Below the pieces are notes generated by a model. The model worked only from the letters and a program-made list of their open reading frames with translations. It ran no database searches and was not told the DNA's origin. The position numbers and the translations under genes are program-made. This document shows, piece by piece, positions 36,961-64,000 of a stretch of 64,000 nucleotides of DNA. The number at the start of each line of letters is the position of its first letter. Position 1 is the first letter of the stretch. This DNA comes from Candidatus Heimdallarchaeum aukensis (lineage in GTDB: Archaea; Asgardarchaeota; Heimdallarchaeia; Heimdallarchaeales; Heimdallarchaeaceae): contig CP084166.1 of assembly GCA_021513695.1 (NCBI GenBank), positions 960,001-1,024,000 on the forward strand, given 5' to 3'.

Positions 36961-38208
36961 AGGTGTGGCGAACTGAGGAAATATGGGTGAAAGATTCGAT
37001 CACTCTAAAACAGTTAGCACACAAGGTAAAAAACTTGTATAATCAAGCAAATTACATTATTAAGTATCAGTTAAGAAGAAGTAAATATTTCACAAAAGAG
37101 TTTGAACTAATGAATATTTTAAGGTATCACCCCGACTTACACAGCTTTACCTGGTCATACGGCACAACAGACGATAAAGTTTCTATGTTTAGCGTGGAAA
37201 GGGTATTTTAGGTCTTTAGAAGAATGGAAAAAGGAACCAGAAAAGTTTAACGGTAAACCTCGTCCTCCAAGATATAAGAAGAAAGAGGGACTAGGTATAA
37301 TCTATTTTACTAACTCTCAAGTGAAAATTAAAGAAGAAAAAGAAAAAGAAAAGAAAAGTAAAGGTAAATTCTTTATCTCTTTTCCTAAACGTGTAGGACT
37401 AAAGATAGTTACAAGACTCGACCCTTCAACTAAAGTGAAGTTTGCCCGGCTCATACCTATGGGAACGAAGTTTAAATTAGAGATAGTTTACGAGAAAGAG
37501 ATAGAAGAGCTAAAAGAACGACCAGCAGAAAGAGTTTTAGCTCTTGTTCTGGGAGTGAATAACCTTGTAGCTGGTTTGACCACTATTCCTGGTGAAAAAG
37601 GCTTCCTGATAAATGGTCGGCCCATTAAAGCTGTTAATCAGTGGTTCAACAAACGTAAAGCAAAATTACAGTCAATCTATGACAGACAAGGGTTAACCAC
37701 TTGGGGAAGAAAAATGCTCACCCTCCAGTTAGAGCGAATGTGTAAAATAGCTGACTATTTCCATAAAGCAAGTAGAAAAATAGTAGACTACTGTTTAGAA
37801 AAAAACATTGATACAATAGTTATAGGTTATAACCCCCGATGGAAACAGAAGGTTGATATGGGTAAAAAAAATAACCAAAACTTCGTTTTTATCCCCTTCA
37901 AAACCCTCATTGATAAAATCACTTACAAAGCAGAAGAAAAAGGAATAAAAGTTATTCCTACCAAAGAATATTACACTTCTGTCTGCAGTTTCTTGGATAA
38001 TGAAGAGATAGCTTTTCACACTCATTATGCTGGTAAAAGGATCCACCGTGGACTGTTTATCAGTGCCCAAGGATTAAGAATTAACGCTGATATCAACTCT
38101 GCAGGTAATATCGGTCGCAAAGTATTCCCCACGTTATTCTCTGTTATGTCTAACTACGGGATAGTCTGGGGTGCCGTGGTTCACCCTGTCCGTTGGAAAA
38201 TAAGTTAG
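36951..38208 (+). pseudogene. tnpB: TnpB-like (IS200/IS605 OrfB family) gene interrupted by a +1 frameshift near the C4 run at 37130-37133. RuvC-I Asp and RuvC-II Glu appear substituted.
   Basis: Frame 0 carries the N-terminal segment. Frame +1 from ~37122 reads '…YTALPGHTAQQTIKFLCLAWKGYFRSLEEWKKEPEKFNGKPRPPRYKKK…', the classic TnpB helix. Downstream: '…NADINSAGNIG' RuvC-III. Zn-finger cysteines are largely absent. Confidence 0.65.
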
Positions 38209-44146: not shown

Positions 44147-46624
44147 ATGAAATTTACAAATCGGTTACAAGTACTGATTAATTCTGTAATAATTTTAAGT
44201 TTAATAACAGTAGGAATGGTTACATCTTCTGCAATTCAGATCAATTCAGAAGAGAATTCTTCTGTTAGAGAAACAATTACTGAGGATACAGTCTGGGAAG
44301 GTATAACAATCTACATTAATGAATCAATGCTTTTCAATGCCAAATTAACAATATCTAACTCAATTGTAATTTTTAAAGCAAATGCTACAAATGAGGTTAT
44401 TTTAGAAATAGGGGATACTTTAAACATAACTGACAGTCAAATATTAGCAGATGATCCTGATTACAACGGAAAAATCAAAAGTTTGCTCGGAGAAGAAATA
44501 ATTATAAGTAATTCTGAAATAAAGAATATAGATATTAGCGTCAATAGTGCAGAAGTGACTATAATTGACTCAGTTTTTGACAACTGCTATGAAGTAAAAT
44601 TCTTGACATTGCCAGAAACAAGTATTATAGCAAGAAACACTTTCAAGAATAATGAAACAGGATTATCACTTACTTACTCTCCAATAGAGTTAATAAATAA
44701 TACTTTCGAGAACTTAGATATAGGTGTATCAGTATCCTCTAGCGAAGGTATTTTGATTAAAGGAAATTCCTTTACCAACATTGCAGAAACTGCTATTTAC
44801 CAAACAAAACAGGGTGCAACAATAGAAAATAATGAGTTTACTGATGTTAATCGTGGAATAACCATTCAACAATCCAAAGCTGTATTAATTAAAGAAAATA
44901 CTTTTGAAAAATCTTATACAGCTATCATGACTCTAGACTCAAGCTATGTTACTATATCTACAAACAGTTTCGCAAACAATGAATTTAGTATTGACATGTC
45001 TGAAACTTATTATTCTGAAGTTTCAGATAACACAATAGAAAACACAACTGAAATAGCAATGCAAATACTAGAGTCAGATTATGTTGATATTCTAAATAAT
45101 GAGATAACTAATAGTTCAATTGGAATAAAATTAAATGAAAATAGAGCTTCTGCAATTCAATATAACACAATTACAGATGCTTTACTTTCCATTGATATCG
45201 AACATTCAAGATCCATCGATGTGATAGCAAATACAATTATAAACTCTGAAACAGCAATGTATATCGAAGATTCAGACAAAGCAACTTTAACTGCAAATGA
45301 TATCTTGACTTCCAATATTGGTATATCCATTTGGTCTTCAACTTCTCCTGCATTATCAAGTAACAAAATACTTGATACTAATATAGGAACAGAGTTGATA
45401 CTTGTTTCAGAAGGGTTATTACTAGGAAATGAATTTACTAACTCTCAAATGGGTATTTATGTTGTAGATACCAGTGAAACAAAGGTTGTAGATGGAACAT
45501 TAGTTAATGTTGCAGATGGTATAAAAATAGTCGAAAGTCCTAATTTTGAAGTAAGTGGAAACACTTTTGAAGACATTTCTGGAGATGCAGTAATTTTTGA
45601 TGATAGCAATGACTCTGTTGTTTATCATAATAACTTTTACAATATTACTGGTAAATATGGTAGCATAATTGATTGTATTGTTAACTTTGAATACGAAGTT
45701 TCTAATGGAACAATTCACGGTAACTACTATGAAGGAGTAGACGAAACATCAGTCTATATTGACACAGTCACTTATGAAGGAAAAGAAATTGAAATCTATG
45801 ACAATCATCCATTGACAGAAAAATACACTGTTCCTCCAGCAATAAGTGTTGTAGAAAGAGATGTACAAGATCCTGATGACACAATGATCGTAAATGTCAC
45901 AGCACAAATCTATAAACCATCAGAACTTTCAATTTCAGCATACTTAGATTACATGTCAAACTTTGATGATGATTGGACATCAGTTGAAATGACAATTGTA
46001 TCTTCTGTTGGTCAAATATACATCTATCAATCTTCTATACCTAAATTAGACTACGGACTTGAAATAACCTACAGGATTAGAGTAGTTTATGAATCTGAGT
46101 CTACTATATCAAGCAATTATACATATGTTGTCGAATACTCTGATGAAACACCTATCATCATTAATAATCCAACAGTAGTCGTAAGAGCTGAAGGTTCAGA
46201 TAAATTTACTTACACAAGTGTATACTATGATCTATACTATATAGTTGTGCAAGTTAGAGTAAAGAATCAAACAGCTAATCTCGCAAAAATAGATGGAAGA
46301 GATTATGTCAATATCTCATGGACATTAATAACAAATGAAGGAAATGAAACACATGATAACATAATGTTCTACAACACCACTACAGGAGTGTTCGAACTAG
46401 AATTAGGAAAGTTTACAGCCAATTCTAACATTACTTATCGAATATATGCAGAAGACGAACTAGGTAATTCAAGATGGACATTAGAAACCTATGAAATACA
46501 CATCACCTCTGAAACTACTGAAGAAACAGGTTTCGATAGCGTTACATTAATAGGAATAACAGCAAGTTTATTCATAATTCAAACTATAGTTGTTATTCAA
46601 AGAAGAAAAAGACAAGAAAACTAA
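44147..46624 (+). CDS. Surface protein with right-handed parallel beta-helix repeats (NosD/pectin-lyase-fold-like) and a C-terminal TGF+TM+RRKRQ anchor.
   Basis: Repeated 'NxFxNxxxGIxI…' ~22-aa units. Signal peptide. C-terminus '…TGFDSVTLIGITASLFIIQTIVVIQRRKRQEN'. Confidence 0.6.
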   Translation: MKFTNRLQVLINSVIILSLITVGMVTSSAIQINSEENSSVRETITEDTVWEGITIYINESMLFNAKLTISNSIVIFKANATNEVILEIGDTLNITDSQILADDPDYNGKIKSLLGEEIIISNSEIKNIDISVNSAEVTIIDSVFDNCYEVKFLTLPETSIIARNTFKNNETGLSLTYSPIELINNTFENLDIGVSVSSSEGILIKGNSFTNIAETAIYQTKQGATIENNEFTDVNRGITIQQSKAVLIKENTFEKSYTAIMTLDSSYVTISTNSFANNEFSIDMSETYYSEVSDNTIENTTEIAMQILESDYVDILNNEITNSSIGIKLNENRASAIQYNTITDALLSIDIEHSRSIDVIANTIINSETAMYIEDSDKATLTANDILTSNIGISIWSSTSPALSSNKILDTNIGTELILVSEGLLLGNEFTNSQMGIYVVDTSETKVVDGTLVNVADGIKIVESPNFEVSGNTFEDISGDAVIFDDSNDSVVYHNNFYNITGKYGSIIDCIVNFEYEVSNGTIHGNYYEGVDETSVYIDTVTYEGKEIEIYDNHPLTEKYTVPPAISVVERDVQDPDDTMIVNVTAQIYKPSELSISAYLDYMSNFDDDWTSVEMTIVSSVGQIYIYQSSIPKLDYGLEITYRIRVVYESESTISSNYTYVVEYSDETPIIINNPTVVVRAEGSDKFTYTSVYYDLYYIVVQVRVKNQTANLAKIDGRDYVNISWTLITNEGNETHDNIMFYNTTTGVFELELGKFTANSNITYRIYAEDELGNSRWTLETYEIHITSETTEETGFDSVTLIGITASLFIIQTIVVIQRRKRQEN

Positions 46625-49947: not shown

Positions 49948-50841
49948 GTGAGGATTATGAGTGTTGAAGAGTATTCAGGTAAAGACAGAGTTAATTTGGA
50001 GTACCTTGTGAAAGTGATTGATGATTTAATTAAAAAAACAAATCTTATTGAGAAAATGTTAACTGATGAAAAAGAGGGTAGAATTAATCAATATAAAGAA
50101 TTAACAAAGAAAATTGAAAAAAGTGAAAAAGAAACTAAAAGTATTAACACTCAACTGTCAAATTTAAAAACAAAACAACTGTCAAGCCTTTCTAAAGAAA
50201 TTGAAGATTCAAAGAAGGCGTTATTAATTATAAAAGAAAGAATTGATGAAAAAGATAAAGATATTGAAAATCTTGAGATGAAAATTAGTGAAGTAAACAA
50301 ACTGTTTGAACAGTTTAAATCTAATCTAAACGAAGAAAAACAGATCAGAGAAGAAAAAGAACAAGAAATACAAGAGCTAAAAGAAAAGAATAGCGAACTA
50401 AGCATAAGGTTAGAAGAAAAAGAAGAAAGACTGAAACAACTTGAGAATGAATTAACAAAATTAAAAGAACAACTAGGTTCATTGAAAGATAAAAAAGAAA
50501 ATCTTACTTCTAAAATTGAGAAATTAAAGGAAGAAAAGAAAGAACTAAACGAAAAATTGAAAGAAATCGAAAAAGAATATAAAAACTACAAAGACAATAT
50601 GGAACCAGTAATTGCTCAAAATACACATATTAAAAAACTACTTGACGAGAGTTTACAAGGAAAAATATATCTTTACTTACTAGAAAAATATCCAAAAACA
50701 TCAAATATTGATGATATAGCGAAAGAAATAGACTCTCCTGCTGTGAAAATAAAGTCAGAAATACTAGCAATGCAAGAAATGGGTGTAATAAGATACAATA
50801 CTGATACAAGAGAAGTTTTTATCACAGAAAAAAAAGTCTAA
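49948..50841 (+). CDS. Coiled-coil protein with a C-terminal winged-helix-like domain.
   Basis: ~200 aa of heptad-like K/E-rich sequence, then '…YLYLLEKYPKTSNIDDIAKEIDSPAVKIKSEILAMQEMGVIRYN'. Confidence 0.45.
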   Translation: MRIMSVEEYSGKDRVNLEYLVKVIDDLIKKTNLIEKMLTDEKEGRINQYKELTKKIEKSEKETKSINTQLSNLKTKQLSSLSKEIEDSKKALLIIKERIDEKDKDIENLEMKISEVNKLFEQFKSNLNEEKQIREEKEQEIQELKEKNSELSIRLEEKEERLKQLENELTKLKEQLGSLKDKKENLTSKIEKLKEEKKELNEKLKEIEKEYKNYKDNMEPVIAQNTHIKKLLDESLQGKIYLYLLEKYPKTSNIDDIAKEIDSPAVKIKSEILAMQEMGVIRYNTDTREVFITEKKV

Positions 50842-52699: not shown

Positions 52700-52920
52700 C
52701 TGTTTCAAAAACTTGAAGTTGTTTTTATTTTTTTCTCGATTTAAGAAAAAAGAGAAGTCAAAGATTTTTACAATTGAACAGTAATAGTCTAAGTTCGACA
52801 ATAATAGTCTATATCCGATAGTAATAATAAACACTTTATTAATACAACGATAAATTGAAAAGTTTTATATTTGTGTGTTATTTTATTAAAGTGGCAAAGA
52901 AAAATAAAGGAAGAAGAAAA

Positions 52921-53361
52921 GTGATTGAGTCAGTCTATATTATTTCCCGAACAGGATTACCTTTACTTTATGTAGATTTTGTTTCACAAGAAGATGATGT
53001 AGATGCCGTAACTTTATTTTCTGGAATAATTTCAGCGATACAAGTAGCAATGGCTGAAATTGATGTAGGTGTTCCGTCATTCTTTGATACAGAAAAAAAT
53101 GAAATCTTCATGAATGTAACAGAAAAATTTGCTATTGCTGTAGTAAAAAACCAAGAACCAATAGATAGAAATGAAATGAATAAACTAATGGATCAAATTC
53201 AAACCCTAGTATCATTTGATCAAGAAGTGGAAGATTTTAGTACCATTAGTGATGAAACAAAAAATAAAATTTCCAAAAAAATAAGGGAAATAGTTAATAA
53301 CTGGGAAGACTATATTAGCGAGAGAGAAGCAACAAAAAGAATAACGGAATCATTATGGTAA
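52921..53361 (+). CDS. Roadblock/LC7 (MglB-like) domain protein.
   Basis: 'VIESVYIISRTGLPLLYVDF…DAVTLFSGIISAIQVAMAEIDVG…EIFMNVTEKFAIAVVKN' follows the roadblock beta-alpha-beta-beta pattern. GTG 52921 is the likely start; the ORF track gives 52855. Confidence 0.55.
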   Translation: MIESVYIISRTGLPLLYVDFVSQEDDVDAVTLFSGIISAIQVAMAEIDVGVPSFFDTEKNEIFMNVTEKFAIAVVKNQEPIDRNEMNKLMDQIQTLVSFDQEVEDFSTISDETKNKISKKIREIVNNWEDYISEREATKRITESLW

Positions 53362-53378: not shown

Positions 53379-54122
53379 ATGGTTGTCTGGCAAAATAAAA
53401 TTCCAATAAGTTCTATAATCTTTGAACTAGTGGTTGTTATTGCGCTAACTTTTATGGTAATAACAATTTTTGCAAGGTATTTTGCAAAAAGAAAAAAACC
53501 TGTGTTATATCTGGCTTTAGCATACCTGTTTTACGATCTTGCAACTTTAACAAGCTGTATCGGTCGGTGGTTAGGTTATTTCTCTTCAATTCCCTATACC
53601 GAGTTCTCATATACTGACTTTACAACCTTATTTGCATATGTGCTAATGGCTATAGCGAACGTATTTATTGCTGCATTTATTGACACAATATTTATTCAAA
53701 AAGGAGTAGATTTTGTCGCATTCTTTGCTATATTGAGCGGAATAATAATAGGTATGATAGTCCCTATACTGAATTTTGAATGGGGAAACATGAGATCACA
53801 TGTCTTAATAGTATCTTACCATTTAATACTTTCAATATTAATATTTCTAATACTAGCAATTGTGTCTTTAAGAGAAGCTAAAATGAATAAAAAGAAAATA
53901 GCAAAAATAGGTTTCGCTCTAATTGGAACCTATGCTATATTCATGATTCTATTATTTGTTTCATTTACATCAGATTCACTGCTTATAACTTATGTAGACG
54001 CATTTTCAAAGGGATACTCTCCTGCATATTACTTTGGATGGACACTTTTAGTTATAGGATCAATAATAGGTTATCTTGGACTAATTATGCCTAAATGGTT
54101 CGTAAAGATGCTTAAGTTATAA
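53379..54122 (+). CDS. Seven-TM membrane protein.
   Basis: Seven hydrophobic helices of ~20 aa counted by eye; 4-nt gap to the roadblock gene. Confidence 0.5.
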   Translation: MVVWQNKIPISSIIFELVVVIALTFMVITIFARYFAKRKKPVLYLALAYLFYDLATLTSCIGRWLGYFSSIPYTEFSYTDFTTLFAYVLMAIANVFIAAFIDTIFIQKGVDFVAFFAILSGIIIGMIVPILNFEWGNMRSHVLIVSYHLILSILIFLILAIVSLREAKMNKKKIAKIGFALIGTYAIFMILLFVSFTSDSLLITYVDAFSKGYSPAYYFGWTLLVIGSIIGYLGLIMPKWFVKMLKL

Positions 54123-54593: not shown

Positions 54594-55313
54594 ATGCGTA
54601 ATGTGGGTTTTATGAACAAATCATCCGTGAAAAGAAATTTAATGATTGTAAGAGAACAGGATGTTGTTGTTACTGGCGGTGTGGTTTTTATTGGAGATGG
54701 ACATACTGGCAAAACGCATACAGCTCTTAATCTTGTAAGAAATAAGGATAGATATAAGAAAACAGACTTGATCTCGAAGTCAATAAATGTAGAATTTGAC
54801 TATTTTGTTTATCAATCTAATTACCAACAGTATAAATTTACAATAAGTGCACAATTGTTTATATTTCCCGGGCAAAAAGGACGAGCGAAAAAAGGAGAAG
54901 GGTTAGCATTTGAGGATGCTCTAGACCTGTATTTTGATGTTAGAACGGTGAAAGAGGTTATTGTTCTAATACTAACTTTCAATCTTACAGATATAGCTAC
55001 ATTTCAAAACTTAGAATATTGGGTTAAAACAGCTATAGAGAATAATTTAGTCTCAGAAGCAACTAACATAATTTTGTTAGGTACTCACTACGATAAGAAA
55101 TCAAACATTGCTGTGAATGAAACAGATATTATACATGGAAAAAAATTTGTTCAAGAACAAATTGCTAATGAATTGAATATTGATTTTCCTCTGAAACAGA
55201 TCACTGAAGTGAATATATCAAATTTGACAGAAGAAGGTATCGAAAATTTAATTGGAGCGATTATAGACGCTTTTTTCAACGTTTTTAATATAGATGAGTT
55301 TAATTTAATTTAG
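54594..55313 (+). CDS. Divergent small GTPase (Ras-superfamily-like).
   Basis: P-loop 'GDGHTGKT'; G3-like 'IFPGQ'; G4-like 'LLGTHYDKK'; G5-like 'ISNL'. Confidence 0.6.
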   Translation: MRNVGFMNKSSVKRNLMIVREQDVVVTGGVVFIGDGHTGKTHTALNLVRNKDRYKKTDLISKSINVEFDYFVYQSNYQQYKFTISAQLFIFPGQKGRAKKGEGLAFEDALDLYFDVRTVKEVIVLILTFNLTDIATFQNLEYWVKTAIENNLVSEATNIILLGTHYDKKSNIAVNETDIIHGKKFVQEQIANELNIDFPLKQITEVNISNLTEEGIENLIGAIIDAFFNVFNIDEFNLI

Positions 55314-55334: not shown

Positions 55335-58300
55335 ATGAAGTTTCAAAAGCATATAATAATCACAATAAATTTTTTATTAATTTTACAGTCATTGTTATAT
55401 ATTCAAAATATTAGCAATTCACAAAAAGATAGACAGAATATTACTCAGATTATCCCAGGAAACATTGAAAACAATCAACAAGAGAGTATTTATCATTCAG
55501 ATGTTTCCTCAACAAATGTACATACAACTCTTACTCAAGGAACAAACAAAACTTTTGGTTTCTTTACGCAAGATAGCTATGTAAATTTAGATTCTGATGG
55601 AAATGTGTTTCAATGGGAAAAGTATGATGTTGTAAAAGATACAGGTGATAATAGTGTTTATGCTGATTTTGCAATGGATTACTCTTATTCTTATACTTGG
55701 CCAAGTTCTCCTAATAGCTATGTTCCATTAATTGATATTGAAACAGGAACACAACTAGCTTCAACCTTTAGTCCTCCTTTTTCAGAGACTACTTATCTAT
55801 CAGGAAAAGTTTACTTCTTAACATATATTTCCACTTATGTATCAAGTTTTACCATTACTTTAACTCTCAGAATTCGATTGTGGTTATATAATCCTAATGA
55901 TGGAGGACTTACAGAAATTTTAACTATCGAATCTGTTCTTCCCGATAATTCTGATTTAACACAACGTGTTTATTCTTCAACTTTAGAAGATAAAGTTACC
56001 ATCCCCTCAGGTTATAGATTAAAAGTAACTTATGAAGCAAAAACGAGCAGAATAGATAGAGCTGCTTATGTTCATCTTGAAACTGGAGAATATTCAGATG
56101 GTGACCAAGTTAACTGGCAGATAAATGACGCAGAGTATTCTAACACTTATACTTTAAATGACGTTACTTCAGCTCTAGGTGTACAGTTGTATATGTATGA
56201 TGAAACATATCCTACTATTTCAATTTCTGGAGCAGAAAACAATACGATTTATTACGATACTAATGAAATAACAATCAGTACATCTGGAGCAGTAAGTAAT
56301 TCCTACAAATGGGACAGTAATTCATATACTGCTTTTGATCCTCCTGTGAATACAACTCTCCCTTCATCAACAGGTTGGCATTATTTGTATATTCAAGCAC
56401 TAGATGAATATGATAACAAAAATGAAGTAGTATACAAAATAGGCTATGAAAGTTCTAGCATAGTTTTACATAATGCAAACAATAATTCTTTAGTTCCAAA
56501 TAATTTTCTTCTTAACTTTAGTTTGTCTGGATACGATTCAGCGCAATATGCTTGGGATAGTGGAGGAAATTATACTTTTTCTGATCCTTATGACATTTCA
56601 GTACCAGATTTCTCAGGAGAGCACACACTCTATATTTATACAGTAAGCAGCTTTGGAGAAAATAAAACTGTTTATGTTTTTGAAGTTGATAACAGCCCGC
56701 CCTTAATCTCCTTAAGAGACTTAAGCAACGATACTACACAACCTACAAACAAGAAAATTGAACTGAATATTACAGATCAAACTTCAACTATTGAAGTTCT
56801 ATATAATTGGGATAATGTTGCTAATTCAACCTGGAGCCCATTAGAAGGAACAATCTACCAAACTTTTGCTCCAGATACTGATGGTTTTCATTGGCTCAAT
56901 GTATATGCAAACGATAGTTTTGGTCATATTATTGATGTACATTACAGATTTAATATTAGTTCAGACTATTTGCTGGTAGAATTAAGAACAATGATAAATG
57001 ACAGTTATTATTACGGAGGAAACACAGTTGAGGTTACGATTACAGGTACAAATGGGACAATAAAGTATCAGTGGGACTCAAATGGATTCAAAGATGGGGT
57101 AACAGTTGATTCAATCTTGTCTTTATCAGGTTCAGAATCATTACCGAAAGACCTTGGAGTGCATTATCTTACAATAATAGTTGGAGATGTAGATGACAAT
57201 CCCAAATCAACTTTGTTTAAATTTACAATTGACCAAGAAAATCCTGTAGTTTCTAATTTTGGAAATTACAATAATTCAAGATTACACAGTTCCACAATAA
57301 TTGATCTTGAAATAACAGATAATTTTACTTTAAGTAGTGAAATAGAAGCATGGGTATCAATAGATGGAGGAGGAAATATATCTTTTACGTATCCCTATGA
57401 TATTAAAATATCTTCTTTAGAAGATGGAGTTCATAATATTACTGTTTTTGCCTTTGATATTGCGCGAAATAATGTTTCTTGCTTAATAATTTTTGAAATT
57501 GATACGACAGCTCCAGAAATAGATATTGTTTCCATTCAAGGGTTAGAAGTTTCTTCTAGCGGTGTTTCATATATTCCCGGAAATGCAGCAATTGAATGCT
57601 CTTTTGTTGATGCAGACCCCGAAATTTATCACTTTTATTCATGGAATAACTCAGCTTTTACACTATTTGCTGGAAATACTTTTAATTTACCTGATACTGA
57701 TGGAAACGCAACCCTACGCATTTTAGCTAATGATACATTAGGAAATGAGAAAATTTTAACATTAGATCTTTTTATAGACACTACTCCTCCTCAATTGTCT
57801 ATACTGTTTCCTAATAACTACTCTAAAATCAATGAAGCGACACCTTTATTGTTTTTTGCTAATGATAGTGCAAGTGACACCATTTCTTCAATTTCTGCAA
57901 AATGGGACCAATTTCTAGAAGGAAAAATAGACCTTTCTCCACCTTATTTTACAATTTATTTATCAAGTCTTAAAAAACTCTATGAAGAGTTATCAGTTGC
58001 AGAGTTATATATTGATGCAAAAGATATTCTAGGAAATAATTTTACGTATATTTATTCATTTAATCTTGATTTTTCTCCGCCTTCCTACAATTTAGTAGGT
58101 GCCCAAAATAATACTTTTGTAAGAAGTGATACAATCCTTCAATTTGAAAATTTAAGTAATGACTTAATGAAGTTCGTTTATTATTGGGATTCTAATGATA
58201 TATCTATCTTAGATGATCCGTGGACTATATCAATACCAAATAATGATGGGGTACATAATCTTACAGTAATTCTTTACGATAACACAGGTGAGGGATATTA

Positions 58301-59942
58301 CCCAAATTGGGTTAAATCATTTTACACTTTTGTTGTTGATGATATTGGGATTGAAATTACTAGTCCGTCAAGTTTTTCCAATAATACAGAAGTTGGAATT
58401 GTATATAAACAATCATTTACCTTTTCTGTTGATGTCTACGATACAGCAGACAATCAAATTATAGATAATCTTAATTTTGTAATTTTAAACAATACACTGA
58501 ATCTAGAAATAGAGAATGAAACCTTAGATGGAAAAACATATACGATAACCATTCATGGTACAAATGTTGGATCAACAAGATTAATTTTTCAGTTTTCTAA
58601 GGGAAATTCGAATAAACATCAAATTGTTGTTCCTCTTACGATTGAAAAGAAAGAAGGAACAGTTTCATTGTTAGGGACAAGCGTCTTAAGCGTGATATAT
58701 GAAGAAAATTTCACTATAATACTGAATTTAGAGGATGAAAACTCTAATCTTTTAAATATTACCCGGGTGACTGTTAATGGTAGTTTAGTGAGCGATTTTA
58801 TCTATTTAGATGAATATCATGCTATACAATTTAATTATTCTTCAAGAGAAACAATAGGAAAAGGAGAATATAATCTGTTAGTTAATATTGAATCTAATTA
58901 TTACTATGGAGAAAAAATAATTGGCATTGAGGTTAAACCTATCCCTATTATTCTAAGTTTATCAGTCTCAAGTTATACTGTAATTGAAGGTTCTCAAGTT
59001 GCAATTACAGGAACTCTTACTTTTACAAATGGGACTCCGATACCTTCTATAACTCTATACTTTTCTATATATATAGTCTATAAGAATCAGTCCAATAATA
59101 ATGTCATGGCTCTGCCTTCAGAATACGGAAGTAAGGTTGTTTTCTCAGGATTAACTAATTCCTCTGGACAAGTAACGATTGCTTTTGAAATGACTTCAGA
59201 GATAGATTATATTTCAGTTGATTGTTCTTTTGGAGGGAGTAATATCTTTGACACAGTTTACTATGAAATGGAGGAATATATTTATTCTATACCTACTCCA
59301 AAACTTCCAACTTGGATATTATACACAATAATTGGTGGAAGTATTATATTGGCAGCAATAATCTCCTTTGTTGTTTATAAGCTTACTAGACCTAAACCAT
59401 TTGATGAGATATTAAATTCAATTTCTGATAATGATATCGTGATGAACATGACCCGTATCTGCCCTGGTGTTGTTCTATCAATCTTTGATCAACGCAAAGG
59501 TGCAATTCCATTAGTGTCTGATCATTCATTGGATTATAGTTACAGTGGAAGAATTAGGATAGGGCTTGAAAACTTTATGTTGAAAATTTCAGATCAAGCT
59601 TACTCTTCATTGGGCTTTGAAGAGCACCATTCTGGGCGTAGAACAGGAACAATTACTCTACCAAATGAAGGACTTGTAGGTTTTATTCATGGGATACAAT
59701 TGGAAAATAAAGCTGCGAGAGGAGGTTTTGAAAACCTTTCACTTATTGTGCTTGTAGAAAATGAGTACGGGACAATGTTACTTAGTTATCAAGAATACCT
59801 GTATCCCTTAATTGATGAGTTAATTTCCATGCTAAAAAATAAGAAACCGTTGGAGGATATTGAAGAACAATTATCGAATATACGTAGTCAAGCAACAAAA
59901 ACAGTTTTAGCTTCATTAGAATATGAAAATGCAATGTCTTAA
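55335..59942 (+). CDS. Giant (1535 aa) type-I membrane protein. It has a signal peptide, at least 7 extracellular Ig-like repeats each with a W-D-S motif, a single TM (59310-59390) and a ~180-aa cytoplasmic roadblock/longin-like domain.
   Basis: Repeated '…Y(K/A/Q)WDSN…' modules; TM 'WILYTIIGGSIILAAIISFVVYKL'; cytoplasmic '…ICPGVVLSIFDQRKGAIPLVSD…LSLIVLVENEYGTMLL…'. Confidence 0.6.
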   Translation: MKFQKHIIITINFLLILQSLLYIQNISNSQKDRQNITQIIPGNIENNQQESIYHSDVSSTNVHTTLTQGTNKTFGFFTQDSYVNLDSDGNVFQWEKYDVVKDTGDNSVYADFAMDYSYSYTWPSSPNSYVPLIDIETGTQLASTFSPPFSETTYLSGKVYFLTYISTYVSSFTITLTLRIRLWLYNPNDGGLTEILTIESVLPDNSDLTQRVYSSTLEDKVTIPSGYRLKVTYEAKTSRIDRAAYVHLETGEYSDGDQVNWQINDAEYSNTYTLNDVTSALGVQLYMYDETYPTISISGAENNTIYYDTNEITISTSGAVSNSYKWDSNSYTAFDPPVNTTLPSSTGWHYLYIQALDEYDNKNEVVYKIGYESSSIVLHNANNNSLVPNNFLLNFSLSGYDSAQYAWDSGGNYTFSDPYDISVPDFSGEHTLYIYTVSSFGENKTVYVFEVDNSPPLISLRDLSNDTTQPTNKKIELNITDQTSTIEVLYNWDNVANSTWSPLEGTIYQTFAPDTDGFHWLNVYANDSFGHIIDVHYRFNISSDYLLVELRTMINDSYYYGGNTVEVTITGTNGTIKYQWDSNGFKDGVTVDSILSLSGSESLPKDLGVHYLTIIVGDVDDNPKSTLFKFTIDQENPVVSNFGNYNNSRLHSSTIIDLEITDNFTLSSEIEAWVSIDGGGNISFTYPYDIKISSLEDGVHNITVFAFDIARNNVSCLIIFEIDTTAPEIDIVSIQGLEVSSSGVSYIPGNAAIECSFVDADPEIYHFYSWNNSAFTLFAGNTFNLPDTDGNATLRILANDTLGNEKILTLDLFIDTTPPQLSILFPNNYSKINEATPLLFFANDSASDTISSISAKWDQFLEGKIDLSPPYFTIYLSSLKKLYEELSVAELYIDAKDILGNNFTYIYSFNLDFSPPSYNLVGAQNNTFVRSDTILQFENLSNDLMKFVYYWDSNDISILDDPWTISIPNNDGVHNLTVILYDNTGEGYYPNWVKSFYTFVVDDIGIEITSPSSFSNNTEVGIVYKQSFTFSVDVYDTADNQIIDNLNFVILNNTLNLEIENETLDGKTYTITIHGTNVGSTRLIFQFSKGNSNKHQIVVPLTIEKKEGTVSLLGTSVLSVIYEENFTIILNLEDENSNLLNITRVTVNGSLVSDFIYLDEYHAIQFNYSSRETIGKGEYNLLVNIESNYYYGEKIIGIEVKPIPIILSLSVSSYTVIEGSQVAITGTLTFTNGTPIPSITLYFSIYIVYKNQSNNNVMALPSEYGSKVVFSGLTNSSGQVTIAFEMTSEIDYISVDCSFGGSNIFDTVYYEMEEYIYSIPTPKLPTWILYTIIGGSIILAAIISFVVYKLTRPKPFDEILNSISDNDIVMNMTRICPGVVLSIFDQRKGAIPLVSDHSLDYSYSGRIRIGLENFMLKISDQAYSSLGFEEHHSGRRTGTITLPNEGLVGFIHGIQLENKAARGGFENLSLIVLVENEYGTMLLSYQEYLYPLIDELISMLKNKKPLEDIEEQLSNIRSQATKTVLASLEYENAMS

Positions 59943-60049: not shown

Positions 60050-61462
60050 ATGTCTTATCTTTTAGATGAGTTAAAGAGGAAAAAACAAGCTGAAACCGAC
60101 GAAACCATTGATAAAATACTTCTAATGGGACTTCAAGAAGCTGGAAAAACAGCTATTAAAGATGTTGTTTTTTTTGATAAAGATCCTGAAGAAGTTGTAG
60201 AATATATGGCAACAACTCATTATCAAAGACAAATCATTGGAGACAAAAAAAAGAATTTACTTATCGATTCAGGAGGACAAGAAACTTACTGGAACGAAGC
60301 AGTAACATATTTTCGCTACTTGATTTTTTCTAATGCTAAAATCCTTATTTGGGTGGTAGATTTAACTCATCCTGAACTTTTTGATGAATCAGAAAGAAGA
60401 TTTAGCTTCACAATTAGACAATTTAAGAAAGAGAACAAAGATGGAAAGGTCTATGTTTTTTGTCATAAAGCTGATGTTGTTGAACCAGAAAAACTAGATG
60501 CAGTAGTTGAGCATGTAAAAGAACTGTTATCTGATCCCAAATTTGAGATTGAATTTAAAATTACATCAATATTCAAAAAAAATGAGTTAAAGCAAATAAT
60601 GAATAAAATTCTCGAAGAATCTTCAATTGATCAAGAACAAATAGAACTTGTCACTGATGTTGAAAAGAAAATTGAAGAAAGCCCTGAATTTGTTAAATTT
60701 CTAGAAGAACATAAAGCAGATCCACGAGTTAAAGAACTCATGGAATATATTAAACCTCAACCAAAACAATATTTACCTTCATTTGGGAAAGTAGAAGTAG
60801 ATGTGAACCTTGAAAATTATGGTATTATTGAAATCATTATACTTGATAAAGAAACATTGAAGCCAGCAATAGGAGCTTCATCACATATCATCTCTAATAA
60901 AAAACAATCATTTGAATATATTCTGGCTCTTAATTATTTTAAAAACTTAATAAAATCAAAAGAACAGAAAATTGAAGCTCTTGGAAGTACCTTTAGTTAT
61001 CCTGAAGGTGAAGTTCATGCATTGATTTTTAATTTGAAGAATAGTTACATTATAATTACCTCATTTAATGAAATAGATGAAAACATAAAAAAGGAATTAT
61101 ACAAATTTATTCTCAAATTTTCAGATGAAATGGTAAAAGAAAAATCACTCGTTAAAGAAGAAAGCATTTCTAAACCCCCTAGTATAGCAACTGAACAAAG
61201 CGTTGAAATAGAACAATCAATAGCCCAAGAAGTGAAAAAAGATGAAAAGAAGGTTTTTGCAGAAGAAGTTTCTTCAACGCAAAAAGAAACTTTAGTCAAA
61301 GAAGATGAAGAACAAAAACAAATGATAAAACAAGTCTCCTCTGAAAAAGCTAAATTAGAAGAAAAGAAAAATGGAGTAGGTTTAGATATTACAGAGAGAG
61401 ACATAACTAAAATAGCTAAATTTCTATATGATCAGCTGGATAAAGAAAAAAAAGAAGAGTGA
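60050..61462 (+). CDS. Rag/Gtr-like GTPase with a C-terminal roadblock-like domain and an acidic/lysine-rich tail.
   Basis: G1 'GLQEAGKT', G3 'DSGGQE', G4 'CHKADV' (HKxD as in Rag/Gtr), 'ITSIF' after the G domain. CRD '…YGIIEIIILD…VHALIFNLKNSYIIITSF'. SD AGGAG before ATG 60050. Confidence 0.7.
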   Translation: MSYLLDELKRKKQAETDETIDKILLMGLQEAGKTAIKDVVFFDKDPEEVVEYMATTHYQRQIIGDKKKNLLIDSGGQETYWNEAVTYFRYLIFSNAKILIWVVDLTHPELFDESERRFSFTIRQFKKENKDGKVYVFCHKADVVEPEKLDAVVEHVKELLSDPKFEIEFKITSIFKKNELKQIMNKILEESSIDQEQIELVTDVEKKIEESPEFVKFLEEHKADPRVKELMEYIKPQPKQYLPSFGKVEVDVNLENYGIIEIIILDKETLKPAIGASSHIISNKKQSFEYILALNYFKNLIKSKEQKIEALGSTFSYPEGEVHALIFNLKNSYIIITSFNEIDENIKKELYKFILKFSDEMVKEKSLVKEESISKPPSIATEQSVEIEQSIAQEVKKDEKKVFAEEVSSTQKETLVKEDEEQKQMIKQVSSEKAKLEEKKNGVGLDITERDITKIAKFLYDQLDKEKKEE

Positions 61463-62686
61463 TTAAACTGGTCTACTTTTTCCAATACTTCTGTATTCAC
61501 AGTTATTGTCAAGAAGAATTGGAATCTCTCTCATTTCAGTTATACATTCATGAATTGGGTATAATTCTATAGTTGTAGTACCAAATCCTTTCTTAATTTG
61601 AATTGCATGCTCAAAATTATCAGCATTCTCTAAAGCTACCTCTAATATTGATTTATGTAATTCTCTTCCACAAATGTCACATTTAAAGTAAATTTGCTTA
61701 TTGATCTTGGTTTCTAATTGTTCTTTGTTTAATATGTTATGAGATTCGAAAAAGGTAATCAATTTATCTTTAACCTTTATTTTAGCAACAGAGATGACTT
61801 CTTCTGTTTTGAACATTTTTCTCATTTGATCACAAATTTCATGAAAAGTAGAAATCTGCTGATTTAACTGTTCTTGCGAAGAAAAAACTGAAGTAATGAC
61901 AAGGTCTTCTTCGATTTCTCTAATAAATATCCTTGAGTCACTCAAAGAAAAGACAATATAATTCAAATCAAGACTAGGTGAGTAGATCTTAACTAGTTCA
62001 GAGCGTAATCTGGAAAGATTGAGATTAACTTCTTTTTCTGGTTCAGAGTATAAAACCAAACCTTTGGAAGTTGATAGGGTTAGAAGATTTAGATTATATT
62101 CTGATACTATCTCTTGAATGTTAGAAGCTTTTGTTAGGTCTCTAGGATAAACAACAGAAAAAATTCTTTGCATTGCATCCCATATATTCTCTTCAAAGAT
62201 AGAAGTTTCATAGATTTCAGAATTGGGATACTTGCTCAACTCAAAAATATCTTTAATTGAACGTGTAATAGCAGCCCTTTTGTCAACAGGAACAACATCC
62301 ATTTTATGGGCGAAAACATAGATTCTAGCGCTAGAACCAATTTTTTTAAGATTATCCAAAGTAAGATCAAAATAATATTTAGAACGCATGATGTTAGAAG
62401 CATCAGAAATATCAACAACATAAATCAAAGCTTTAAGGTCACTAAAAGTTCTTTCAGTATATTTCTCAAAAAGCTCATTTAAATAAGAAGATTGACCTCC
62501 TACATCAACAAGATTAATAGAACTTCCTGCAAAATTGAAAAGCTTACGATTAATTCGAACTGTAGCAGGATTAAGAGAAGTTGCTTGAGGAGCAAAGCCT
62601 TCAAAAACAACTTGACGAATAGAAGTTTTACCAGATTGAGATAACCCCAGAATAACAATTTTTGATTGAAGTGAACGATCATTCAT
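61463..62686 (-). CDS. Rag/Gtr-like GTPase with a C-terminal roadblock-like domain and a terminal zinc ribbon.
   Basis: G1 'GLSQSGKTS', G3 'LVDVGGQ', 'LIYVVDI', G4 'AHKMDV'. '…YETSIFEENIWDAMQRIFSVVYPR' parallels RagA '[21 protein letters not shown]'. 'CDICG…' zinc ribbon. Confidence 0.8.
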   Translation of the reverse strand: MNDRSLQSKIVILGLSQSGKTSIRQVVFEGFAPQATSLNPATVRINRKLFNFAGSSINLVDVGGQSSYLNELFEKYTERTFSDLKALIYVVDISDASNIMRSKYYFDLTLDNLKKIGSSARIYVFAHKMDVVPVDKRAAITRSIKDIFELSKYPNSEIYETSIFEENIWDAMQRIFSVVYPRDLTKASNIQEIVSEYNLNLLTLSTSKGLVLYSEPEKEVNLNLSRLRSELVKIYSPSLDLNYIVFSLSDSRIFIREIEEDLVITSVFSSQEQLNQQISTFHEICDQMRKMFKTEEVISVAKIKVKDKLITFFESHNILNKEQLETKINKQIYFKCDICGRELHKSILEVALENADNFEHAIQIKKGFGTTTIELYPIHECITEMREIPILLDNNCEYRSIGKSRPV

Positions 62687-63344
62687 TATATAATAATTAA
62701 ATCATACGAACTTAAAAAAGTGATTATTATCAAATTTATTTTGCAAAAAAAAGTAATTTCTATTATTCTTTATGCTAAAGGGTATTTGGAAATAAAACAT
62801 GCTTATTACACCCTATTCAAAAATTCAAACTAGTACTTAAAATAACTAAAATAATTTTAGTAAAAGTGAATTTAACATCTATCTAAATCTTAATAAAATT
62901 TTAACATTGTTTGAATTCGGTGGCAAAAAATGGGTGAATACGTTTGTCTACAAAGATTTTATGAATAATAAAGTATTCTCACTTAGCAGACCCACTAAAA
63001 AGCCACAGCAGTATTTTTCTAGCTACTTGGAGTTAATAGGTAATACACCTTTAGTTTTTTTGAATAAGGTGAGTAAAGCTATTAACCACGAACTCTATGA
63101 TTTACTTTTTTACGTAAAGTTTTTCGCGCTCTGTCTTGCAAGAGAGAAAACAAGTAAAAGTTTAATCTCTTGAACTCAACCAAGCCATACAATGCTATGA
63201 AGAGGATGAGACAGACATCATACACGAATCGTGGGAATCATAAAGAAGAAAAGAACTAAAAACTCTTTTCTTCACTCCACGAGAGACAAAAAGAAAGAAA
63301 GATTTCCTCCTCCTACAGGAGAGAATTTGTCCTTTCGTTTTTGT

Positions 63345-64000
63345 CTACTGGGACTGCAACCAATGGCTGAGCCCTAGGCAAACAGTGAAATGGGTAGAAC
63401 TGTATCTTTGACCAGTGAGGTAATCAGTGATAGTGTTTCCTTGAGGACTGAAAAGAGCACCAAGGAACTTACGAGCGATATTCATTGCTCCTGTGAGGTC
63501 AGAGTGGAAAGTGTAATTGCAAGAAGAACAATGAACTAAACCTCTTACTGGACGGACAACTTTCCTTCCACAACGAGCACAGTGAGAAGATGTCCCTTTT
63601 TCCTCTATCGTTAATATTCGGTGAGGGTCAAAACCTCTTAATATTAGTGCCCGACGGAGAAGAGTAAGAACAAGGTAAAAATTCCACTGATGAAGTTTCC
63701 TGCGAAACTTACGAGTACTTTTACCTTTCTCTTTTCCTTTCTCCTCGCGAACATGTTTAGGGTAACCTACAACGACGAAAAGGTCATACATTCGCGCATA
63801 GGTCTCTATCGTCTGCACAACCTCACTTACAAATTGGTAAATATAGGCTCGTTTAACGTTTCTATATCTTCTTCGAAGAAGACTAAGAAAACGATAAACT
63901 TGATGTTTTTTACCCGACTGGTCGTTTAAAGCTGCTTTTCTCTGAAGACGGGAAAGTTTGACTTTATATCGATGGTTGACTCTATTCCACTGTTTGGTAT
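63345..64000 (-). CDS. tnpB: TnpB-like (IS200/IS605 OrfB family) protein, C-terminal ~215 aa. The gene continues past the 3' window edge.
   Basis: Minus-strand frame is open to the window end ('TKQWNRVNHRYKVKLSRLQRKAALNDQSGKK…'). Zinc finger 'CARCGRKV…CSSCN'; RuvC-III-like 'SDLTGAMNIA'. Confidence 0.65.
   Translation of the reverse strand, partial: TKQWNRVNHRYKVKLSRLQRKAALNDQSGKKHQVYRFLSLLRRRYRNVKRAYIYQFVSEVVQTIETYARMYDLFVVVGYPKHVREEKGKEKGKSTRKFRRKLHQWNFYLVLTLLRRALILRGFDPHRILTIEEKGTSSHCARCGRKVVRPVRGLVHCSSCNYTFHSDLTGAMNIARKFLGALFSPQGNTITDYLTGQRYSSTHFTVCLGLSHWLQSQ

Follow-up and report, generated by a model that had tools for sequence, protein, structure and literature searches.

Nutrient sensing at the eukaryotic lysosome centres on the Rag GTPases and on GTPase-activating proteins of the longin type, folliculin and GATOR1. 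Folliculin is the protein that switches Rag off in eukaryotes, and it acts on RagC through Arg164. Here we analyse a gene cluster of the archaeon Candidatus Heimdallarchaeum aukensis (GenBank assembly GCA_021513695.1), in which two adjacent genes encode Rag/Gtr-like GTPases, called protein A and protein B in the following, and a third encodes a giant protein with a predicted folliculin-like longin domain at its C-terminus. The cluster lies in a window of 64,000 nucleotides (contig CP084166.1, positions 960,001 to 1,024,000 of the forward strand) with a G+C content of about 30%. All coordinates refer to this window, in which tRNA and Rfam scans were both without a match.

Rag-like GTPases and longins have both been described in Asgard archaea. 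Tran et al. 2024 (PMC10933270) reported that Lokiarchaeota strain MK-D1 has many Rag-like GTPases to which a roadblock or longin domain is fused, and predicted that one operonic pair heterodimerises via the roadblock domains like Gtr1/Gtr2. Crystal structures of two Lokiarchaeota Rag-like GTPases, LokiRagO (8yl2) and LokiRagM (8zla, 9m28), were released in 2025-2026; our literature search found no publication describing them. According to a preprint, the two eukaryotic Rag lineages both pre-date the last eukaryotic common ancestor and are nested among Asgard Rag/Gtr sequences. Liu et al. found folliculin-like and NPRL2-like longins in Asgard archaea, the GTPase of their conserved operon not being a Rag. 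A 2025 study (PMC12290439) described a Gly-Pro motif and an arginine finger that are specific to longins with GTPase-activating function, reported such longins in Heimdallarchaeia, and posed the question whether their partners are Arf-related or Rag/Gtr GTPases. The terms operon, synteny and transmembrane are absent from that article, so gene context is apparently not discussed there.

Against this background, a Rag-like pair with roadblock domains is not new, having already been described in Asgard archaea. Our searches, within their reach, brought up no report of a conserved coupling between such a pair and a folliculin-like longin anchored in the membrane. The cluster resembles the eukaryotic Rag/Gtr systems (RagA/B-RagC/D; Gtr1-Gtr2) in that two paralogues are encoded together and a folliculin-type longin is associated with them. 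With the Asgard Rag-like GTPases of Tran et al., LokiRagO and LokiRagM it shares a Rag-type GTPase domain followed by a C-terminal roadblock domain (putative in protein A), but A and B are a separate family, found here in Heimdall-group genomes only, in which B carries a zinc module and A a long tail. Unlike the MK-D1 pair, A and B are convergent rather than operonic and are invariably linked to the membrane-anchored longin. This longin has the same motifs and occurs in the same lineage as the Heimdallarchaeial 'FLCN/SMCR8-type' longins of PMC12290439; unlike in that account, it is seen here in its gene neighbourhood and on a membrane-anchored giant protein.

We are confident that A and B are GTPases of the Rag/Gtr family with intact nucleotide-binding motifs. 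Gtr1_RagA (PF04670; cut-off, 22 bits) is the top Pfam family both for A (84.4 bits, E = 1e-23, residues 22-177) and for B (112.8 bits, E = 2e-32, residues 9-210), and leads the runner-up Arf (42.9 and 47.8 bits) by 41 and 65 bits, respectively. NCBIfam returned just a generic small-GTPase domain for the two proteins, below threshold. In profile searches of solved structures, A matched Gtr1/RagA first (2e-11) and RagC/Gtr2 second (4e-9), while B matched Gtr1 (1e-23) and RagA (9e-22) first and RagC/Gtr2 second (1e-11), its match to LokiRagO reaching only 1e-15. The sequence match of B extends to residue 213 with Gtr1 and to residue 239 with Gtr2; its scores of 81 bits to RagA and 87 bits to Gtr1 may be set beside the yardstick of human RagC to RagA, which is 65 bits. 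A first, sequence-only reading of this DNA had taken both proteins for relatives of Rag/Gtr, and these searches bear it out: Gtr1_RagA came first in Pfam and Gtr1/RagA first among solved structures, and in neither case did a generic Ras, Arf or MglA family score best.

The motifs agree with this placement. The Rag-specific HKxD at G4 and the DxGGQ at G3, as in eukaryotic Rag/Gtr heterodimers, had been noted in both proteins and are indeed there: A has G1 GLQEAGKT (residues 27-34), G3 DSGGQ (73-77) and G4 CHKADV (138-143, HKAD at 139), and B has G1 GLSQSGKT (14-21), G3 DVGGQ (61-65) and G4 AHKMDV (126-131, HKMD at 127). The TSI(F/W) segment that follows the GTPase domain of Rag proteins is likewise present, as TSIF at residue 172 of A and within ETSIFEENIWDAMQRIFSVVYP at residues 160-181 of B. 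The G motifs, including the switch-II glutamine, show no variation in alignments of 33 B and 40 A orthologues, and A and B therefore both look like working GTPases.

Comparison of A and B by hhalign gave an alignment across the GTPase domain only (probability 99.5%, about 30% identity), which supports their being distinct paralogues, as the sequence-only reading had proposed; their adjacency is kept in every related genome that could be checked. The same reading had likened them to the RagA-like and RagC-like halves of the eukaryotic heterodimer, an analogy that does not extend to orthology. Both score better to RagA/Gtr1 than to RagC/Gtr2, unlike the two subunits of eukaryotic Rag/Gtr heterodimers, and a heterodimer is predicted here by analogy. 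A crude and small neighbour-joining tree of A, B and three eukaryotic Rag sequences, with Arf1 as outgroup and rooted replicates, gave bootstrap values of 63% for B with RagA/Gtr1, 18% for A with RagC, 6% for A with B and 32% for eukaryotic monophyly; it is too crude to decide the placement of A and B, and an assignment of A as the RagC-like half is not supported.

The predicted structure of B shows the full Rag architecture, a GTPase domain with a roadblock domain, plus an extra zinc module. In the AlphaFold2 model (predicted local distance difference test score, pLDDT, 71), residues 184-291 have the α-β-β-α-β-β-β-α topology of a roadblock domain and, as in eukaryotic Rag/Gtr proteins, come straight after the GTPase domain. 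The best 45 Foldseek matches of the model are all Rag/Gtr chains, from eukaryotic Rag/Gtr proteins and Lokiarchaeota Rag-like GTPases, and full-length chains of Gtr1, RagA and RagC align to B over about 300 columns, spanning GTPase and roadblock domains, with E-values down to 3e-16. The roadblock domain taken alone matches Roadblock3 of Lokiarchaeota strain MK-D1 (9jue) and MglB. In the bacterial MglA-MglB polarity switch, too, a small GTPase works with the roadblock fold, which there forms a regulatory dimer, and MglB is among the weaker matches of this domain; MglB is a protein of its own, whereas B carries its roadblock domain on the same chain as the GTPase domain. We rejected an MglA/MglB module as an identity for the pair, there being no MglA signal for A or B in Pfam or among solved structures, and MglB appearing at Foldseek rank 49.

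The zinc ribbon proposed for the C-terminus of B was recovered in the orthologue alignment. The motifs CDIC (residues 336-339) and HEC (379-381) are present, and C336, C339, H379 and C381 are invariant in the 33 orthologues, so the ribbon amounts to a conserved Cys-Cys-His-Cys site. The tail sequence LDxNLEYRRYxKSRPI is almost invariant in the same orthologues. In the model, this terminal module is rich in strands (pLDDT about 60-82). It sets B apart from the eukaryotic Rag/Gtr proteins, from which A differs in turn by an insert and a long acidic and basic tail with a terminal motif.

Protein A begins with an ATG that is consistent with an invariant MSYL N-terminus in its orthologues. The conserved linker or insert after its GTPase domain, which reads as helical, has no counterpart in the alignment of the B family. 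The next 120 residues or so (residues 246-366) show conserved blocks in the alignment that are patterned like β-β-α-β-β-β-α, and this domain is putatively roadblock-like. The sequence-only reading had given both proteins a C-terminal roadblock domain; the model and the Foldseek matches substantiate this for B, while for A there is the pattern and no profile match. The A domain does not match the B roadblock domain significantly (hhalign, E = 0.18-0.63, local and global), nor a longin profile in local and global profile-profile comparison, and searches of solved structures, and of Pfam with each family member separately, gave nothing meaningful. Since the roadblock domain of B, which the model supports, also misses the longin profile, profile comparison is too insensitive at such divergence.

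The tail of A (residues 366-470) contains 20 Glu and 19 Lys among 105 residues, in agreement with the Lys/Glu-rich tail described earlier. Its length and sequence vary strongly between orthologues, most of which have 550-690 residues. The tail ends in GLDITERDITKIAKFLYDQL (residues 444-463, bases 61379-61438), and the terminal motif [FS]xxD[IV]xxxAxFL is retained in all A orthologues and doubled in the longer ones (alignment A2). This motif resembles a docking helix at the end of an otherwise unconserved tail.

The giant protein encoded next to A has no Pfam match. There are 39 N-x-S/T sequons in its ectodomain, compared with 22.6 +/- 4.2 in shuffled sequences, the enrichment being confined to the N-terminal part, and orthologues are 30-38% identical over about 1200 residues. 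A Kyte-Doolittle mean above 1.8 over 19 residues is reached in one segment only, at residues 1324-1350. Our best reading is that of a glycoprotein-like, single-pass surface protein with a cytoplasmic C-terminal domain.

That domain is the last of the giant and is 50-61% identical among its orthologues. The AlphaFold2 model (pLDDT 92; predicted template modelling score, pTM, 0.89) has the topology strand-strand-helix-strand-strand-strand-helix-helix, and shows a longin domain with folliculin as its closest eukaryotic structural relative: the nearest eukaryotic folds are folliculin, Lst4/FNIP2 and NPRL2, all from catalytic GTPase-activating complexes. The structure that matches best is 8yqg, a longin from Lokiarchaeota that forms a homodimer, and the longin tail may thus do so as well. 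Across both tiers of homologues, G39, P42, R112, G113, G114 and N117 (domain numbering) are invariant, within the motifs FDQxxGPxP and ARGGxEN. The first of these reads FDQRKGAIP in the giant (Gly1389 at 59499-59501) and sits at the hairpin between strands 28-35 and 39-47 of the model; in the second, Arg112 of the domain, which is Arg1462 of the protein (59718-59720), lies in the loop between strands 4 and 5. The hhalign register pairs Arg112 with Arg164 of folliculin, whose sequence was checked against chain 6ulg_L, in an alignment that is not significant alone (E = 0.044). The sole recurrent Pfam match of the longin tail is Folliculin, always below threshold and seen weakly in 11 of 26 members (best E = 0.0013). 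We infer that Arg1462 may be an arginine finger equivalent to folliculin Arg164.

Unlike folliculin (FLCN-FNIP; Lst7-Lst4), NPRL2-NPRL3 of GATOR1 and C9orf72-SMCR8, the longin of this cluster forms the C-terminal tail of a long single-pass protein, is accompanied by neither a DENN domain nor an evident second longin partner, and remains below threshold in Pfam. All its homologues in public sources are called hypothetical and are without a Pfam domain. Many other proteins, up to about 2600 residues long, have this longin tail at their C-terminus, with 25-30% identity and the same invariant residues; surface proteins that end in a longin may thus make up a wider family. At two loci of such distant giants that we checked (L033 and L034), there are arrays of giant open reading frames and no Rag neighbours.

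Genes A and B lie tail to tail on opposite strands, their stop codons abutting at 61462/61463. Their convergence rules out an A-B operon. To follow the arrangement in related organisms, one genome per species was scanned, which yielded 28 loci, all from Heimdall-type genome bins, a few of them labelled otherwise; these were surveyed by tblastn, and the counts that follow cover loci with sufficient flank. A adjoins B in 21 of 21 species-level loci, convergently in 20 and rearranged in one (L030), and the giant with its longin tail adjoins the pair, directly upstream of A, in all 20 loci where this could be seen. At L030, the most divergent locus, the order is A(-), Ras-like GTPase(+), giant(+), B(+), and the four genes are still together. 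Gene calls on three contigs concur with the tblastn layout, and orthologues of A and B are found on shared contigs with consecutive locus tags. A functional link between A, B and the giant is likely. B shares 99% identity with a protein of a 'Candidatus Heimdallarchaeaceae archaeon', in line with an Asgard source of the Heimdall group. Cluster members also occur in records labelled Thorarchaeota, Bathyarchaeia or Zixibacteria (L014, L022; P0167), all others being labelled Heimdall or unclassified; these labels are likely to be binning or labelling errors.

The fourth gene, for a divergent small GTPase of the Ras superfamily, belongs to the cluster often but not always: it is found upstream of the giant in 12 of 14 related loci. 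Its product has a normal P-loop (G1, GDGHTGKT) and degenerate G3 (FPGQ) and G4 (THYD) motifs, and gave weak matches only, to Sec4, Cdc42 and Ran, among solved structures. The features of the cluster are collected in Table 1.

Table 1. Positions of the genes and domains of the cluster in the 64,000-nucleotide window.
Feature	Position	Strand	Extent	Basis or remark
Divergent Ras-superfamily small GTPase	54594..55313	+	239 aa	Pfam Ras 2.5e-6; 21 nt upstream of giant
Giant protein, open reading frame	55335..59942	+	1535 aa	
Giant, N-terminal signal/anchor and Ser/Thr/Asn-rich ectodomain	55335..59303	+	~1300 aa	Composition, sequons
Giant, single transmembrane helix	59304..59384	+	Residues 1324-1350	Kyte-Doolittle
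Giant, cytoplasmic C-terminal longin domain, folliculin/NPRL2/SMCR8 type (predicted)	59385..59939	+	Residues 1351-1535, 185 aa	
Protein A, open reading frame	60050..61462	+	470 aa	
A, Rag-type GTPase domain	60050..60634	+	Residues 1-195	Pfam, solved structures, G motifs
A, conserved linker/insert	60635..60784	+	Residues 196-245, ~50 aa	Conserved block in alignment A2
A, conserved C-terminal domain	60785..61147	+	Residues 246-366	Putatively roadblock-like, by inference only
A, Lys/Glu-rich low-complexity tail (residues 367-470)	61148..61459	+		Composition
Protein B, open reading frame	61463..62686	-	407 aa	
B, Cys-Cys-His-Cys zinc module and conserved tail	61466..61696	-	Residues 331-407	Orthologue alignment, model
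B, long connecting helices	61697..61807	-	Residues 294-330	Model helices 294-315, 321-327
B, C-terminal roadblock domain	61808..62146	-	Residues 181-293	Model and Foldseek
B, Rag-type GTPase domain	62147..62686	-	Residues 1-180	Pfam, solved structures

How might these proteins work together? We lean slightly towards a membrane-anchored, folliculin-like regulator that acts on the Rag-like pair. In the proposed mechanism, A and B would pair via their C-terminal domains, like Gtr1-Gtr2 and RagA-RagC; we consider the case for such a heterodimer, which is drawn from these analogues, to be evenly balanced. The membrane-anchored longin, probably dimeric like 8yqg, would stimulate GTP hydrolysis on A or B via Arg1462. 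That the longin would be a GTPase-activating protein for one of them, by analogy with folliculin, is a tentative assignment that we put at somewhat less than an even chance. Events at the cell surface, in the form of the state of the large extracellular domain, would then feed a switch of the Rag type just inside the plasma membrane, and, as a speculation, A and B might dock through the terminal motif and the conserved tail, respectively. Taken as a whole, the cluster would encode a plasma-membrane forerunner of the folliculin-Rag module, with the arginine finger of a giant receptor's longin setting the nucleotide state of a Rag-like heterodimer; this complete picture is doubtful.

Several observations weigh against the proposal. 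With respect to the pair, the C-terminal domain of A lacks detectable similarity to roadblock domains in profile comparisons, among solved structures and in Pfam. Of the Rag-like proteins solved from Lokiarchaeota, one is a homotetramer (8yl2) and the other a monomer (8zla, 9m28), and heterodimerisation of A and B is therefore not a given. Genes A and B occupy opposite strands, and about 100 nucleotides separate A from the giant gene, so co-transcription cannot be taken for granted. A bacterial promoter and terminator scan around the cluster gave counts at the level of shuffled sequence, such a scan being ill-suited to an archaeal host.

With respect to the longin, eukaryotic GTPase-activating proteins of this kind are heterodimers of two different longins, with DENN or other domains, and the conserved cluster contains no Pfam DENN match and no second longin gene. 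The domain misses the gathering score of Pfam Folliculin (PF11704; 13.9 bits, cut-off 23.3), and when the longin alignment was used as a profile against solved structures, designed helical bundles were all that came back, so that a fold comparison was needed for the longin tail. Domain position 40, where 22 of 26 aligned sequences have Pro, is Ala in the protein of this window and in three orthologues. The Ras-like GTPase encoded 21 nucleotides upstream of the giant could be the client of the longin instead of A or B. A separate matter is a difference from the eukaryotic Rag/Gtr systems: within the conserved cluster, to which the search was confined, there was no sign of a Ragulator/Ego-type anchor, a GATOR complex or a TOR kinase.

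The points raised against the proposal bear on two alternatives in particular. In the first, A and B are members of the Rag family that share a pathway without pairing as a heterodimer; they would function singly or as homo-oligomers, and nothing but common regulation would explain why their genes are adjacent. We consider this unlikely, although the Lokiarchaeota crystal structures show just such assemblies, several differing homodimer arrangements have been modelled for Asgard Rag-like proteins (Tran et al. 2024, PMC10933270), A and B are not detectably similar in their C-terminal domains, and the two genes are convergent and not co-transcribed. Set against this, A and B co-occur one to one and adjoin each other in every one of the 21 genomes where this could be tested, the rearranged locus included, and the MK-D1 gene pair is predicted to heterodimerise like Gtr1/Gtr2 (PMC10933270). 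Adjacency at the rearranged locus is kept in a different gene order, with the Ras-like gene and the giant lying between A and B. The Rag proteins known from eukaryotes all form obligate heterodimers, each with a paralogue as partner.

In the second alternative, which we regard as improbable, the longin is not a GTPase-activating protein for the Rag pair but promotes nucleotide exchange or serves as a membrane scaffold, in the manner of Ragulator, TRAPP, Mon1-Ccz1 and the DENN longins, or its client is the Ras-like GTPase. Roles as exchange factor or scaffold are usual for longin and roadblock modules (PMC12290439), and an Asgard folliculin-like module has been put forward as an exchange factor by Liu et al.; the missing DENN domain and second longin gene, and the Gly-Ala in place of Gly-Pro in the protein of this window, fit such a role. 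The closest eukaryotic folds, however, are those of the catalytic GTPase-activating complexes of folliculin, Lst4/FNIP2 and NPRL2, and an invariant arginine is found where the hhalign register puts the arginine finger of folliculin. As for the Ras-like client, the position of its gene upstream of the giant is kept in 12 of 14 loci, but the Rag pair accompanies the giant more regularly (20 of 20). A third alternative, that A and B are generic Arf-, SR-beta-, Ras- or MglA-like small GTPases with a superficial resemblance to Rag, fits the public names of their orthologues ('ADP-ribosylation factor-like protein', '50S ribosome-binding GTPase', 'signal recognition particle receptor subunit beta') and the second place of Arf in Pfam, but the lead of Gtr1_RagA over Arf for both proteins, the score of B to RagA beyond that of human RagC to RagA, the alignment of the B model to Rag chains through the roadblock domain and the HKxD in both make it highly improbable. 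The generic Arf/SR-beta annotation is contradicted by the Rag/Gtr matches in Pfam, among solved structures and with the model.

Some further features of the surroundings may be recorded. Next to B lies a 157-residue fragment of a TnpB/Cas12f-like protein with a TNB domain (63345..63818, minus strand), in place of which a full copy of 485 residues is found on the contig of a 98-99% identical strain (L004). A repeat of about 145 nucleotides at 63097-63241, just 3' of the fragment, has an 87%-identical copy in L004 (11227-11371) exactly between the stops of A and B; it probably represents either a small mobile element or an end of the IS605-type element. A second OrfB_IS605/TNB protein, of 295 residues, is encoded elsewhere in the window (37321..38208, plus strand). 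Just upstream of the Ras-like gene are the genes for a small protein with a weak Roadblock/LC7 match and a longin/roadblock-like pattern (52855..53361, plus strand) and for a polytopic membrane protein (53379..54122, plus strand), both of whose products were absent from all related loci in the tblastn survey. Farther upstream, the plus strand encodes an 825-residue protein of the right-handed β-helix/NosD-like type (44147..46624) and a 297-residue coiled-coil protein with sub-threshold crescentin/tropomyosin-like matches (49948..50841); no link of either to the cluster was seen.

With a Rag-like pair tied to an arginine-bearing, folliculin-like longin across Heimdall-group genomes, the cluster gives a concrete and testable answer to the question of which GTPases are the partners of such longins. 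The link between folliculin and Rag may predate eukaryotes, and the arrangement suggests that the module, in its ancestral form, was perhaps carried by the tail of a surface protein and located at the plasma membrane. If the proposed mechanism is true, the pairing of a longin GTPase-activating protein with Rag would be older than eukaryotes and lysosomes, and would first have been wired to the cell surface.

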